IMG/VR virus record: IMGVR_UViG_2877251553_000005
DNA length: 52,483 nt
DNA from: a virus
Lineage: Duplodnaviria; Heunggongvirae; Uroviricota; Caudoviricetes
Direction: 5' to 3' (one strand)
Shown here: one piece after another, positions 1 through 6,000 of the stretch
How positions within the stretch are numbered: position 1 is the first letter of the stretch
Layout of the letters: every line of letters starts with the position of its first letter
Program-made: the position numbers

Positions 1-3000
1 TCAAATGACCAGTTTTTTCCATTCCTTACCGCGTGCGTCGTTGTAAATATCGGTCATTTTTTGATTCGAATGGCCTAGCAAAATTTTGGTATCAACCCCC
101 TGCTCTCTGAACAATCGCTCTGATAAAGATCTCTGCTCATGGAAAGAGGGAGGGGTGCCATTAGCACGCCAGTTGTAATCCACAGAATCCCGGGCTTTTT
201 TAAATGCAACGGTTAATGTTGCTGGCTTAACCATCCCGCCGCGCTTAGCTGTCCCTTTCGCGTGATGGTGGTGCAATAGCCACGGACTAAGAACGCAATC
301 GCGGCAGGATGACACCACATCATCCAGGGTGAGATTTAATTTATCGCAACGCAGAGCCAGAGGGATGGCAATCCGGGTTCCTGTTTTTTGCTGTTCGACA
401 TGAAGATAACCATCCCGGATATCCGAAAATTGCATTTTGCAAATATCTGAAAGGCGCTGGCCTGTCATCAGTGCCAGCAGCATACCGCGCTGTAAAAAGT
501 AACCATCCTTTTCCGCTGCGTTATAAATCATCATCCACTCATCAAAAGTCAGTCGCTGTCTTGATATCCGCACCTGCGGTTTTTTTGCCGATTCTGCAGG
601 GTTAAAGCCTGGCGGGACATCGCCCGTTTGCTGAGCTTCCCGGAAAACATCGATCAGTACTTTCCTGAAAATTTGTCCCATTCTGTTATGTCCTCTGGCC
701 TTGTACTCTTCCAGTACTGATACCACATCTTTTACGGTTATGACATCTAACGGTCTGGTGCCAAAACGTTCATCAAATACCCTGAGAGGGGCCGCTTTCT
801 GTTTCAGCGTGTTGAGTTTGATCTCGCCGTTTTCATATCTTTCCTGTTGAATTTTTCTGTAATTATTCAGAAAAATGGTAACGGTTGATGAACCGCCGGT
901 ATCACTAATAATTTTCTCCTGCAGACTGCGCATTTGTTCCATTTGCTGCCGGGCAAGACGGCTGTTCGCTTCTGCTGCAATAGTTTCTGCCAGTTTCTGG
1001 TCAATACTGCCGAGACCGTGATTTTTGCCTGTTATGGGATGCCTGTAACGCCAGTAAACTTTGTTATTTCTTTTATCAAAATACGGAGATAATCCCGGAA
1101 CATCGGTTTTATATTTTCGCGGGCGCGCCATCTTCCAGTATCCTCTTCAAAGCAGGGTGATCTGTGGCGATCACCTCCGGCTTGTTTACCATTCCGACAA
1201 AGCGAGCTTGCGGATCCACTCGCCAGCGTCTTCCAACTTTTTTGGGGAGAGGAAATATCATTCCGGCTTTAGCGTATTTACTTAACGTACTCGGAGTTGG
1301 GACCGGTTCACTGAATTCCTCTTTTGCCCACTCAGTGAGCAGAATAAGTCTTGCCATGAGCGTCGTTCGCTAATCATGGTCGCCGCCACTATAGCTGGTG
1401 GGCAACGACCGGGGTTGAACATTAAAAATCAGCCTGATTCGGGATCAGTTTTTGCCAGATAACTGAAACGTATTTTGCCTGGTAACGGGCGTCATCAAGT
1501 GCATTATGGCGCTCACCTTCGAATGGAATAGCCGTTCTGGCATCGAAGTCTATGGCTTTCCCCAGCTCAACGATTGTGCGTACATCGCGATCGTTGTAGT
1601 AACGCCACGGGCAGGGGATCCCCTGCCGTTCGTATGAACGGCGCAAAATCGTGTTGTCGAAGTTGGCTCCATTTCCCCAGACCTGAACAAAAAATTCACC
1701 GGAGTTTTCGTCGATAAATTCCCGCAATTGTAACAGTGCATCATCTAACGGGATTTCATCGGTCATAATGGCAGATTGCGCTTCGCGTGATTGCTTAAGC
1801 CACCATTTAATGGTGTCCCGATCAATGACCCCGCCAGCAGTTTCCAGATCGATAGTCTTACTAAATTCCGGTCCCATATCTCCGGTTTGCGGATCGAAAA
1901 ATATTGCACCTATTGAGATGATCGGGGCATCAGGATTTTTTCCCATGGTTTCAAGGTCGATCATTAGATGGTCACACGTCCTGCTGGTGGATGTGATTTC
2001 TTGATGACCGTTCACCTTAATTGAGTGATCTGCCGTCTCGCCAGTTTCATTATCGCTATCGTGATGCTGATTGCCGTCAGTGTTCTCCTTGTGTGGATGT
2101 TCAGCGCCTTCCATTTCCTCCGGATCATCTTCCTGAACTTCAACCTGATACTCTTCATCGAATGTTTCCTGGTATGTTGCGTCGCCCATCACCGCGCCAC
2201 AATCAGGGCAGTTGCCGCCGCCGGTCTGACCGCAGGCGGTGCAGACTTTTTCCACTTCCTGTTGCGCCACTGGTTCAGGCTGTTTCGTTTCTGGCTCGTT
2301 TTGTAACGCATTTGGGCTGTTTTGTTCCGCTTTCTGGCCGTTCTGTTCCGTTTCTTGCTGGTTCTGATTCACTGAATCGCGGGTTTCAATCCCCTTCACC
2401 CATTTCGGATCATTCGGGTCGCTAATCCCTGCAACAAATTCACCACGTGATACAGCAAGCAAATTATTGGCGTCAGGCTGGCTGATATTGGCTGCCTGCA
2501 TAATTTTGTTTACTTCGTCAGCGGTAACTTTTACCGGCTCTGGTTGTGCGATCGTGTCAGATGCACCAGTATTTTGTTGTGAACCTGAGTACGTGCCGTT
2601 TTTACGTGCGAAGTATTCCTCTTTTGTGATTTCCGTAGCTCCCAGGGCCAGTGCTTTTTCCAGACCAGAAAGTTTGTTTGCGCGACCGTATTTTTCGCCG
2701 TCCTTATCGGTGAAAAGGAAGTAGAACGGTCCCTCACGCTCTACAGATGGTTCGTCTTCCACTTCGCATTCGGTTTTTTCGTTGTCCGGCATTGCCGTTT
2801 CCACTGCATCAGTTTCTGGTACTGGTGACGGGAGAGTACCAGCTGTGCCCTGATTTGTTCCTTCGTCATCTTCAAACACGCCCTTGGTAGTCAGGTATTC
2901 AGTGATGTATTTGTTCAGTGCTACGGGATCTTTGTGAATGTCGATCGGACGCTCACGGACAAGGCCAAAAATAGTCTGACGGTCGTAGCGAACGGCATCG

Positions 3001-6000
3001 GGTTGTTTGCGCATTGATGCGGAAATGCGCTTCCAGTCTTCGCGATCTTTGTCGATAACTTCATTTTTTGCCCAGCGATGGATGCTGCCGTCAATGTTTC
3101 CGGTATCAATATCGCCAGGCCAGAGAGCGTAGGCCAGTTCTTCATCCAGCGTTTTCCATGTCTGCTTGTATTCGCGACAAATGGCGGCAGTGACTGGGTT
3201 GATTTTTCCTGCTGAGTTTTCAGTGTTCTGTTGATTGACTCTGGCGCTGGCGAGATCAACAACAGACGTGTATTTTCCAGTCTCTTTGCGCTCTGCGTCC
3301 TGCCGTTTTTTCCAGTTACGTAATTCAGCCTGAATTTCGGGCCATTTGGCACCCGGATTACATTTGTGTTTAACCCATCCGATAGCGAACAGTTTGCGTT
3401 CCGGATACATAGCGTTAATTTCAGGCGTTTTCATCAGTGCTTCAACGATATGCCCGTCAAAGGTAGCAACGTCTTCCTGCAGTAATTCCTGCGCGTCAAT
3501 CGCCATATCAACGGTGATGTTTTCACATGTACCGAACTTAACCAGGACCGCGTTCTGTACTTCAAGGGACAGCTTGTCAAAATTGACGTTCATCGGATCG
3601 GATTCTGGTTCGACCGGAATAAAGGAAGCGGATTCCTCATCCCAGCGGTTTTCCTGCATATATTCAGCATCCCAGGAATCGAGGGCAGGGCGGGGTATAC
3701 CGGGTTTATCCTCGCAGACAAGAAATTTATAAGCGCAGTCCTGAGCAGCCGGATAATGTTCCAGGAATTGCCAGTGAAATTTTGCGCGGGCGCGACGTTC
3801 ATCACCGGCTTCAATGGCAGTGGCTACAGCGACGGCACCTTCTTCCTTTATTGCCTGTTCGTCCGGAATGGCGGCGCAAATAAAGACTTTACTCATTTTG
3901 TTTTAACCTCATTACAGATTTCAGGGTGAACGAATCCCTGCCATTGCTGGCATTTTTAATCCGTTGGTATGGCGTTAATATGGCTGGCGGGTTATCCAGC
4001 CGGTATTTCGTTATTCAGGTTCAGCGATACTTTTTTTAACGGGAGGCATTCACCGGGGATTTTTTGTTCGTCCCTTACCTGAATGCAGGATGACTTACTG
4101 TCATAAATTCCGGTAATCACATTTTGTGGCTCACCCGTTATAAGAAAAACGGTCATCACCAGTGCAAATGCTGAAGTCACTGCTGTTCTCCGATAATACC
4201 AAGTTCAAGAAGGGCAATTCTGGAAAGTATGGAATTATCATTGAGAAGATAAGGTTCATATTTTCTCATCTTAATGGCATCTTCCGTAAACTCCCGGTTA
4301 CTGAGCAGAACACCAATATCAAAACAACCGGTAATGACTCCAACTTATTGATAGTGTTTTATGTTCAGATAATGCCCGATGACTTTGTCATGCAGCTCCA
4401 CCGATTTTGAGAACGACAGCGACTTCCGTCCCAGCCGTGCCAGGTGCTGCCTCAGATTCAGGTTATGCCGCTCAATTCGCTGCGTATATCGCTTGCTGAT
4501 TACGTGCAGCTTTCCCTTCAGGCGGGATTCATACAGTGGCCAGCCATCCGTCATCCATATCACCACGTCAAAGGGTGACAGCAAGCTCATAAGACGCCCC
4601 AGCGTCGCCATAGTGCGTTCACCGAATACGTGCGCAACAACCGTCTTCCGGAGCCTGTCATACGCGTAAAACAGCCAGCGCTGGCGCGATTTAGCCCCGA
4701 CGTATCCCCACTGTTCGTCCATTTCCGCGCAGACGATGACGTCACTGCCCGGCTGTATACGCGAGGTTACCGACTGCGGCCTGAGTTTTTTAAGTGACGT
4801 AAAATCGTGTTGAGGCTAACGCCCATAATGCGTGCAGTTGCCCGGCATCCAACGCCATTCATGGCCATATCAATAATTTTCTGGTGCGTACCGGGTTGAG
4901 AAGCGGTGTAAGTGAACTGCAGTTGCCATGTTTTACGGCAGTGAGAGCAGAGATAGCGCTGATGTCCGGCAGTGCTTTTGCCGTTACGCACCACCCCGTC
5001 AGTAGCTGAACAGGAGGGACAGCTGATAGAAACAGAAGCCACTGGAGCACCTCAAAAACACCATCATACACTAAATCAGTAAGTTGGCAGCATCACCAAA
5101 CAACCTTCAGACGTATTAACGTTTGGTAATAACGTTTCCATTATCGCGTCCTCAACAATGAATTTTGTGATGCGGTGCCTGGTGCCTCCAGGTGACGTTA
5201 ACCAGTTAACAATTAACGCCGGATACAGAGAATCCACCCATAACACTGTTTTTGGTTTTAACTGTTCTGCGTGCGCTCAGCCGCATTCACCACATCACAA
5301 AATTCACTTTAAAAAGGGCGGCAGAGCAGTCACGGAGTAAAACTGATACCGCCAAACGTCACCAGAAAATTGATAACAGAGGGCGTTGCAGCGGGGTTGT
5401 CACTTAAGCGTATGGTCAACCTGACAACCCGGTGTCCTCAGCGGGGAAGGAATAACCCCGCCATACTTACCGCCGCGCCATTTCGCGGATTGCCACAACC
5501 GGAAGCGCACGATCGAATTAAATTTAACGACGACCTATACAGAGAGACTAACTTCTCCGGGCGCTTTCGTGTTATGCCCTGACTTTTCAGGGATATATCC
5601 TTTTCAGTAAACTGTCAGTGCCGGATTCTTATCCGTGTCCGGCGCACGCACTCTACCTCACCTGTGAATAAATTAATGATTAATTGATATTTTGTTGTTT
5701 GATTCAACTTTCCCATCGGATGTGTGATGCTTTAAATCACAGGAATTAATACTGCTTGCTGTAAAATGATTTTCAAGGGTTCTATTCGAATCCCTTTCTT
5801 TTTCATTAACAAGCCAAACCCTTATCAATGATGTCCATTAGATCCAGGAAGTATTTTTCATGTAAATCCTGGTTATCAGAGAGCTGCTTCTCTTCGTACA
5901 GCCCGATAAAGGCTCGGCGTACGTTACCGGATATATTGTCGATGGTTTCTTTTTCTACGGTACTCAGGTCAAGAGTCGCCAGTTGAGAGCGAACCACATT

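Follow-up and report, generated by a model that had tools for sequence, protein, structure and literature searches.

In the Rac prophage, the recombination slot beside xis and int is occupied by RecE (exodeoxyribonuclease VIII), whose PD-(D/E)XK catalytic domain acts with 5'-3' polarity and whose gene is followed by recT. DnaQ-like nucleases have in addition been reported in the recombination (Rec) modules of lambdoid phages by Zheng, Casjens, Davidson, Amundsen and Smith (Zheng et al. 2025, Genome Res, PMC12315714), and the main text of that paper describes a 'Tritos' type of module, in which a nuclease is present while a single-strand annealing protein (SAP), a single-stranded DNA-binding protein (SSB) and anti-RecBCD functions are absent; its four members are all Chi-rich, and phages without anti-RecBCD functions are argued to depend on host RecBCD. 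Here, we analyzed a 52,483-nucleotide stretch of viral DNA (IMG/VR record IMGVR_UViG_2877251553_000005, Caudoviricetes; hereafter the window, meaning this whole stretch), which holds a prophage with a complete open reading frame (ORF) of 824 residues in the corresponding slot (positions 1422–3896, minus strand, ATG start). This ORF is a three-part mosaic that joins a YdfE-type N-terminal module and a zinc-ribbon-containing middle region of RecE type to a C-terminal DEDDh exonuclease domain, and it belongs to a family in which the terminal nuclease is exchanged together with the presence or absence of recT.

The ORF matched phrog_2082 ('exonuclease') over its full length in a PHROG scan (ORF residues 1–824 against profile positions 1–823 of 823), and copies 99.8% identical to it are labelled 'exonuclease' or '3'-5' exonuclease' in RefSeq genomes of Escherichia coli. 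Its C-terminal part (residues 643–814, positions 1455–1970, minus strand) matched PF16473, 'Rv2179c-like 3'-5' exoribonuclease', over practically the full profile (positions 2–177 of 177; E=2.2e-67; 226.6 bits, cut-off 27), and RNase_T matched the same residues weakly in Pfam. When the domain is aligned to T4-type DexA together with ten relatives, the five catalytic residues of a DEDDh nuclease are all seen to be present (D647 and E649 in the ExoI motif, D747 in ExoII, H797 and D802 in ExoIII). A PF12684-like PD-(D/E)XK domain was not matched in the ORF by Pfam, and tblastn with the RecE nuclease domain gave no match anywhere in the window. The product is thus a predicted DEDDh (DnaQ-like) exonuclease of the DexA/Rv2179c family. 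A preliminary description of this DNA, made by reading the sequence, had placed an 824-residue protein ending in a DnaQ-like 3'-5' exonuclease domain at exactly the coordinates recovered here, and the domain matches together with the intact predicted active site bear this out; its proposal that the polarity is opposite to that of Red-alpha and RecE agrees with the finding of a DEDDh rather than a PD-(D/E)XK domain, from which a 3'-5' direction would be expected, and the domain analysis uncovered no canonical RecE-type nuclease.

By sequence, the nearest solved structure is a 227-residue 'Exodeoxyribonuclease' (8KEL/8KEN, E=1e-6) whose length and accompanying text fit T4-type DexA. A DexA homologue of E. 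coli, EcD, was shown to digest T4 DNA carrying 5-hydroxymethylcytosine (5hmC) but not unmodified double-stranded DNA, and to protect against T4, with Escherichia being the commonest bacterial source of DexA homologues (Kang et al. 2025, NAR, PMC12153337). The domain studied here belongs to the same DEDDh family as DexA and EcD ('HREX'): the catalytic residues align, and W67 and Q71 of DexA are conserved in the ORF, although identity amounts to only ~24–28% and both of these proteins are standalone, whereas the domain in the window is fused to a scaffold. We therefore considered whether the protein might be an HREX-like nuclease serving in anti-phage defence or superinfection exclusion, degrading the 5hmC-containing DNA of T-even invaders, sparing unmodified host and prophage DNA and so benefiting the lysogen. 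Besides the relationship to DexA and the EcD results, its retention in 4800 of 5426 E. coli genomes, decayed prophages included, and the operon that it shares with dicB would be in keeping with such a role. The details of the protein point the other way. Judged from the published primers, EcD starts with the ExoI motif and differs at its C-terminus; of the residues proposed to read 5hmC, W152 of DexA corresponds to Y767, which keeps the aromatic character, and D169 to A781, which does not keep the residue, in a stretch where DexA insertions make the alignment uncertain; and the tetramer-forming D90 of DexA, an alanine in EcD, is kept as D719. Moreover, the PADLOC models gave no match to the protein, the gene is located in a repressed early-left operon rather than in the position of a moron expressed in the lysogen, and a standalone orthologue resides within a recombination module (see below). 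A role in defence is thus unlikely. A 20-mer from the EcD primers did find a match in viral contigs, which we regard as a chance match and not as EcD, and none of the proteins retrieved begins with MIDTET, the start of EcD.

The tie to DexA also bears on a second role of that enzyme, the scavenging of host DNA, in which fragments of the host chromosome would be converted to nucleotides during lytic growth. No accompanying endonuclease was found, and no lambdoid temperate phage is known to degrade the host chromosome; the RecE scaffold to which the domain is fused and its surroundings in a Rec module likewise suggest another role. Scavenging is in our view highly improbable.

What distinguishes this nuclease from DexA and EcD is the ~640-residue scaffold that precedes it. 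Its first 260 residues (positions 3117–3896, minus strand) correspond to the YdfE_N and YdfE_C domains, an assignment made via proteins 100% identical over residues 1–343 for which PF27430 and PF27432 are precomputed. Over residues 1–256 the module is 88% identical to YdfE of E. coli K-12, encoded by the Qin prophage pseudogene b1577, and both genes stand in the same operon order, dicF-dicB-ydfD-ydfE. In the K-12 gene, IS2 interrupts the frame after residue ~256, so that neither the RecE-like middle region nor the nuclease is present, whereas the copy in the window is full length; residues 1–260 are thus the intact form of the pseudogene, and K-12 ydfE is a remnant of a gene of the kind described here. 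An AlphaFold2 model of residues 1–345, built from an alignment of 22 sequences, reached a mean predicted local distance difference test score (pLDDT) of 81.6 and comprises an alpha/beta part (~1–100), a helical part (~105–205), a disordered stretch (206–237) and a further helical domain (~245–340); none of the structure libraries compared returned an informative fold match for it.

The middle region (residues 261–626, positions 2019–3116, minus strand) is homologous to the non-catalytic part of RecE. Residues 262–626 aligned to residues 278–591 of K-12 RecE by BLASTP (E=4e-60), with ~80% identity from residue 478 onward, and the region contains the helical domain at ~245–340, a small conserved segment at ~389–432, acidic low-complexity linkers, and a CxxC-x7-CxxC zinc ribbon (C552, C555, C563 and C566; positions 2199–2243, minus strand) which is common to both proteins (CTACGQTGGGNCPDCG versus CNACGQTGGDNCPDCG in the RecE alignment), as are the acidic linkers. 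At the DNA level, blastn similarity to K-12 recE is limited to nucleotides 1430–1870 of the gene (positions 2027–2467, minus strand; residues ~477–624), where it amounts to 77% overall and 90–95% around the zinc ribbon, and it ends ~20 codons ahead of the DEDDh domain. This boundary, at the 3' end of the similar segment, bears the hallmark of a recombinational junction.

Despite its frequent record name 'exodeoxyribonuclease VIII', the protein is not RecE, because its catalytic domain and predicted polarity differ. In line with this, the RecE equivalog model PRK09709 (NCBIfam) scored 274 bits against a cut-off of 1269, with the match confined to residues 448–626, and the N-terminal domain of RecE (PF06630, Exonuc_VIII) was not matched by the ORF in Pfam; when the profiles of the two kinds of N module, YdfE-type and RecE-type, were compared, the similarity was weak (33% probability, E=4.5e-4, 211 co-linear columns). 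The preliminary description had noted a long acidic region ahead of the nuclease. The acidity is real, since the whole protein carries a net charge of -67 with peaks at residues 341–400 and 561–620, but this is not a single featureless tract, as conserved folded segments and the zinc ribbon lie within it. What that description missed, besides the earlier publication and the high frequency of the gene in E. coli (see below), is the ancestry of the protein, which these alignments show to be a RecE derivative, with a domain swap on a common scaffold, rather than an unrelated protein.

Mosaicism with a sharp junction at the DNA level might also mean that prophages, by illegitimate or homologous exchange, have left a chimera without function, a view to which the decaying state of this prophage copy (IS1 in dicB, a frameshifted repressor and two further copies of a putative insertion sequence (IS); see below) and the pseudogene status of K-12 ydfE lend some colour. 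The ORF is, however, intact with all catalytic residues present, the same architecture occurs in a second lineage at only 55–60% identity in the nuclease domain, and isolated phages carry it too. In a survey of 5426 complete E. coli genomes, the 4800 that matched the gene held it at a median of 2 places per genome (maximum 10), and 3511 held a copy at a coverage of at least 80%. It is thus among the commonest prophage genes of E. coli, and a dead chimera is barely credible.

To place the ORF among its relatives, an exhaustive search of representatives at 50% identity was followed by module mapping. The ORF itself and P0121 combine the YdfE-type N module with the DEDDh nuclease. A natural chimera (P0123) joins RecE's own N-terminus (100% identical) and the RecE middle region to the same DEDDh domain (98% identical), whereas two proteins with a YdfE-type N module end in a RecE-type nuclease (PF12684; P0138 and P0158). 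Five others with this N module (P0134, P0140, P0147, P0170 and P0204) terminate in a conserved domain of ~290 residues which local Pfam, PHROG and PDB profile searches did not recognise; in a large-database search, its standalone relatives are 40–50% identical and named 'Rad52/Rad22 family DNA repair protein', and several of them carry PF04098. A fourth C-terminal type follows the YdfE-type N module in a 702-residue protein (P0129), whose residues ~440–702 correspond to phrog_26058, of unknown function, have no match in Pfam and resemble none of the other three effector domains. The Rad52-type fusions of other Enterobacterales occupy the same slot between repressor and integrase and are followed by a gene of the Sipho_Gp157 family, with no nuclease nearby (for example locus L088, positions 6001–8226). 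These fusions may be the 'RecE-2' proteins without nuclease domain of Zheng et al. 2025. PHROGs 2489 and 7838 call them 'exonuclease', probably wrongly.

The relationship between the terminal domain and its neighbours was surveyed in 160 viral loci belonging to two lineages, and since each set is made up of mutually related loci, the counts below represent non-independent events. In the first lineage (80 IMG/VR loci related to P0123), the RecE nuclease was present in 37 loci, in 33 of which recT-ralR-rcbA-xis-int came next, whereas the DEDDh domain was present in 43, none of which had a RecT, Bet or Rad52-like gene and in which xis-int followed directly. In the second lineage, in which the nuclease domain is only 55–60% identical, a divergent RecT (PF03837, Pfam-confirmed) came next in 37 of the 38 loci with the RecE nuclease, the sole exception being a locus that ends at the contig end; RecT was absent from all 42 loci with the DEDDh domain, which have only small regulator genes upstream. 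Pooled over both lineages, recT lies downstream of 70 of the 75 RecE-nuclease forms and of 0 of the 85 DEDDh forms, and the exchanged unit is therefore the RecE nuclease domain plus recT (with ralR and rcbA) on one side, and the DEDDh domain alone on the other. Compared with Rac, the ORF in the window looks like the product of such a cassette swap, the likely junction lying just after the zinc-ribbon segment that both share; in addition, the N module differs, being PF06630 in RecE and YdfE-type here.

The window itself showed the same absence of a partner. Annealase detection combined tblastn with PHROG and Pfam profiles, which outside the left operon covered ORFs of at least 90 residues. No RecT, Redbeta, Erf or Sak family member was found in the PHROG scans of the left-operon ORFs and 20 early-right/nin ORFs, in which the only recombination-related match was a RusA-like resolvase (17080–17454), and tblastn of the window with Rac RecT, lambda Bet, Exo and Gam, epsilon34 Erf, SSB and Abc2, a Rad52-type annealase and the RecE nuclease gave no accepted match. 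A Gam-like similarity of 37 residues (38% identity, E=0.002; 16747–16857, minus strand) was rejected as spurious because it lies antisense within a 348-residue HNH/YdfU-like gene (16021–17067; phrog_96, E=1e-176). Deletion of a partner gene by the IS1 element present in this operon was ruled out as well, since the sequences on its two sides are continuous in PPompW, a prophage without the interruption, and an 8-bp target duplication is present. Nor is an annealase annotated in the isolated phages Tritos, mEp460 and HannyBb, and the complete 45-kb genome of HannyBb was also blank by tblastn. The preliminary description had seen no bet- or recT-like ORF nearby and had suggested that the recombination slot may hold an early nuclease of another kind. 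The former statement can now be extended to the whole window, to HannyBb and to the 85 DEDDh-type loci, in all of which the gene stands without a recT-, bet-, erf- or rad52-type gene and leads straight into xis-int, and the latter is supported by the DEDDh domain and by the lack of an annealase.

Taken together, these features assign the prophage in the window to the nuclease-only Tritos type, as no annealase, SSB or anti-RecBCD gene was detected in it; Tritos itself carries an 823-residue homologue of the ORF at the same position, and we found no essential difference from the class as the main text of PMC12315714 defines it. This extends to the distribution of Chi sites (GCTGGTGG). The window contains 14 of them, 10 on the plus strand, against an expectation of 2.38 ± 1.60, a number reached in 0 of 100 shuffles. 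All lie within positions 1394–26770 and none in the late genes at 27–52 kb, and on the virion map this span makes up the right-hand part and stops shortly ahead of the terminase genes. The abundance of Chi, the excess on the top strand and the position towards the right end fit the model of PMC12315714. For comparison, 7 Chi sites were counted in HannyBb and none in epsilon34, a phage with Abc2. Three of the sites in the window are no more than ~1.3 kb away from the start of the ORF for the terminase small subunit (at 27635), one lies inside the exonuclease gene (1983–1990) and one between this gene and xis (1394–1401).

Phage epsilon34 provides a standalone orthologue of the nuclease, gp34, which is 56% identical over the whole domain (E=8e-72) and which is used in PMC12315714 to illustrate the packing of a DnaQ gene into a canonical module. 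It is encoded between SSB and Abc2, beside an Erf-like annealase, and the order Erf-SSB-nuclease(-Abc2) is kept in 71 of 80 loci closely related to epsilon34. Unlike the protein in the window, which carries the domain on a scaffold of ~640 residues without such partners, gp34 has only ~182 residues and is flanked by Erf, SSB and Abc2. It shares with the window form the label '3'-5' exoribonuclease', and this label raises the question of whether RNA might be the substrate, for example early-left transcripts (in DicF maturation or int retroregulation) or host RNAs. PF16473 is named for the Mycobacterium tuberculosis exoribonuclease Rv2179c, the automatic annotation pipeline PGAP calls some copies '3'-5' exoribonuclease', and the gene is transcribed with DicF and xis-int, between which it lies. 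An RNase is nonetheless very unlikely, given that the only structure-solved relatives by sequence are DNases of the DexA type, that the domain sits on a RecE scaffold on which its place can be taken by a DNA nuclease or a DNA annealase, and that the standalone orthologue is placed between SSB and Abc2.

We tentatively favour, at a confidence somewhat short of even, a 3'-end-trimming DNA exonuclease which assists host RecBCD/RecA recombination. Upon induction or infection, the protein would be made from the leftward early operon and would remove nucleotides at DNA 3' ends by two-metal DEDDh chemistry. Host RecBCD-RecA would carry recombination-dependent phage growth, because the phage would leave RecBCD active and is Chi-rich near its right end. 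Flush ends are what RecBCD binds, and its reloading is blocked by 3' tails until 3'-5' single-strand-specific exonucleases (ssExos) take them off (PMC5592934); because of this need for flush ends, trimming of 3' tails is the simplest role that can be proposed. The exonuclease would thus trim the 3' single-stranded tails of phage DNA ends to give flush ends for the loading or reloading of RecBCD, which, once loaded, would meet Chi and load RecA. The N-terminal and middle scaffold, for its part, would direct its effector, of whatever type, to one common site or partner. The occurrence of a RecE nuclease or a Rad52-type annealase on the same scaffold in the same slot, and of the standalone orthologue in an Erf-SSB-Abc2 module, argues for this proposal.

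Several points weigh against it. E. coli already has several 3'-5' ssExos, so that it is hard to see why a phage copy should be needed. The nature of the substrate (DNA or RNA), the polarity and the role in recombination are suggested by family membership and context, and the end-blunting step is one that we ourselves infer. The fold search with the N-terminal scaffold gave no functional clue, and the IS1 upstream together with a frameshifted-looking repressor makes the expression of this particular copy uncertain. Furthermore, the loci of the epsilon34 type are 86–100% identical, so that the 71 of 80 represent one conserved module and not independent associations. Finally, the main text of PMC12315714 states that 3'-5' DnaQ-like exonucleases 'usually inhibit homologous recombination'.

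This last statement leads to the opposite proposal, an anti-recombination or end-control factor which, by removing 3' tails, would suppress RecA loading, single-strand annealing or illegitimate recombination on phage or host DNA, or would take away the DNA or RNA 3' end used by a host defence. It would be consistent with the degradation by 3'-5' ssExos of the very tails that RecA would bind (PMC5592934), and no annealase was detected that could use such a tail. The standalone orthologue is nevertheless found among the pro-recombination genes Erf and SSB, the scaffold also carries pro-recombination effectors, namely the RecE nuclease or the Rad52-type annealase, and the Chi enrichment argues that these phages need recombination, which makes an inhibitory role quite unlikely.

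The family as a whole allows a broader reading of the trimming proposal, in which the RecE/YdfE scaffold is a general carrier, in lambdoid early-left operons, of interchangeable DNA-end effectors: the PD-(D/E)XK nuclease always together with RecT, the DEDDh nuclease always alone and specialised in helping the RecBCD-Chi-RecA pathway by removing 3' tails so as to let RecBCD load, and the Rad52-type annealase fused directly. The scaffold does carry these three effector types, while a common partner and the RecBCD-helper function are speculation, and we consider the reading in its entirety doubtful. If true, it would explain why nuclease-only phages are Chi-rich and have no anti-RecBCD function, and it would give a function to the 590-residue N-terminal region of RecE. 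This large region boosts linear-linear recombineering, and the reuse of its scaffold with three DNA-end effectors offers a route to study it.

That the recombination slot of lambdoid phages can hold a DnaQ-type nuclease and no annealase was already published in 2025 (PMC12315714). We did not find the RecE/YdfE-scaffold fusion, the strict co-swap of nuclease and recT or the Rad52 fusion in the main text of that paper, and regard the scaffold relationship, the co-swap and the fusion as refinements and not as a new kind of system. The observation made in the preliminary description is therefore real and correctly read, but ordinary and already known; its significance is modest, and the kind of gene is unchanged by our results. 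For annotation, it matters that a gene named 'exodeoxyribonuclease VIII', '3'-5' exoribonuclease' or 'exonuclease' in the records is not RecE. The pairing of the RecE nuclease with recT and the solitary state of the DEDDh form fit the picture of lambdoid phages that outsource recombination to RecBCD and gather Chi, and they make this gene a concrete candidate for a phage-encoded accessory of the host RecBCD pathway.

The gene belongs to a leftward operon whose order from int is xis, exonuclease, a ydfD-like gene, dicB (interrupted by IS1), DicF and a helix-turn-helix repressor region at ~6.4–6.8 kb, so that the location between xis and the repressor region given in the preliminary description agrees with the ORF and domain calls. 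A lambda-type integrase is encoded at 1–1131 (minus strand; PF09003 and PF00589), and the excisionase (1109–1357, minus strand; PF07825, phrog_629) lies directly downstream of the exonuclease with no intervening gene. Directly upstream in the same operon, a small YdfD-like protein (DUF1482; 3992–4180, minus strand; PF07358) is 100% identical to its PPompW homologue. The small RNA DicF (5316–5367, minus strand; Rfam RF00039, 76.7 bits, gathering score 48) marks this as a dicBF-type early-left operon. Tritos, mEp460 and HannyBb share the layout, with repressor, small ORFs, DicF, dicB, ydfD, an 823-residue exonuclease, xis and int.

The prophage bears several marks of decay. IS1 (768 bp, 4330–5097), recognised by ORFs of InsA and InsB size and by comparison with PPompW, is a simple insertion in dicB with an 8-bp target duplication, and splits this gene for a cell-division inhibitor into residues 8–62 (4180–4344) and residues 1–15 (5097–5141). 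In the operon it precedes both ydfD and the exonuclease gene, on which it may be polar. In the cI/DicA-like repressor gene (6402–6805, minus strand), homologues were matched in two frames (residues 1–57 and 20–135), and the gene appears from this pattern to be frameshifted. The putative frameshift and the IS elements suggest prophage decay, and loss of the repressor could explain selection for an IS1 knockout of the toxic dicB. A pair of ORFs of 136 and 301 residues, typical of the IS2/IS3 family, is present in two putative copies of the same size (13239–14512 and 23606–24879, plus strand). Elsewhere, the ORFs at 7539–8438 and 8555–9106 both matched the 482-residue phrog_15931 (replication O/P-like), and those at 21634–22278 and 22161–23504 matched successive parts of the 634-residue phrog_143; both genes look split and may represent further frameshifts. 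Rfam matches at gathering score within 14882–15057, 19946–20102, 20371–21028 and 50909–51107 comprise a sok RNA, two tRNAs, two STnc100 RNAs and an IS009 RNA. The sok antitoxin RNA probably points to a module of the hok/sok type, and the IS009 RNA lies near the tail-fibre end.

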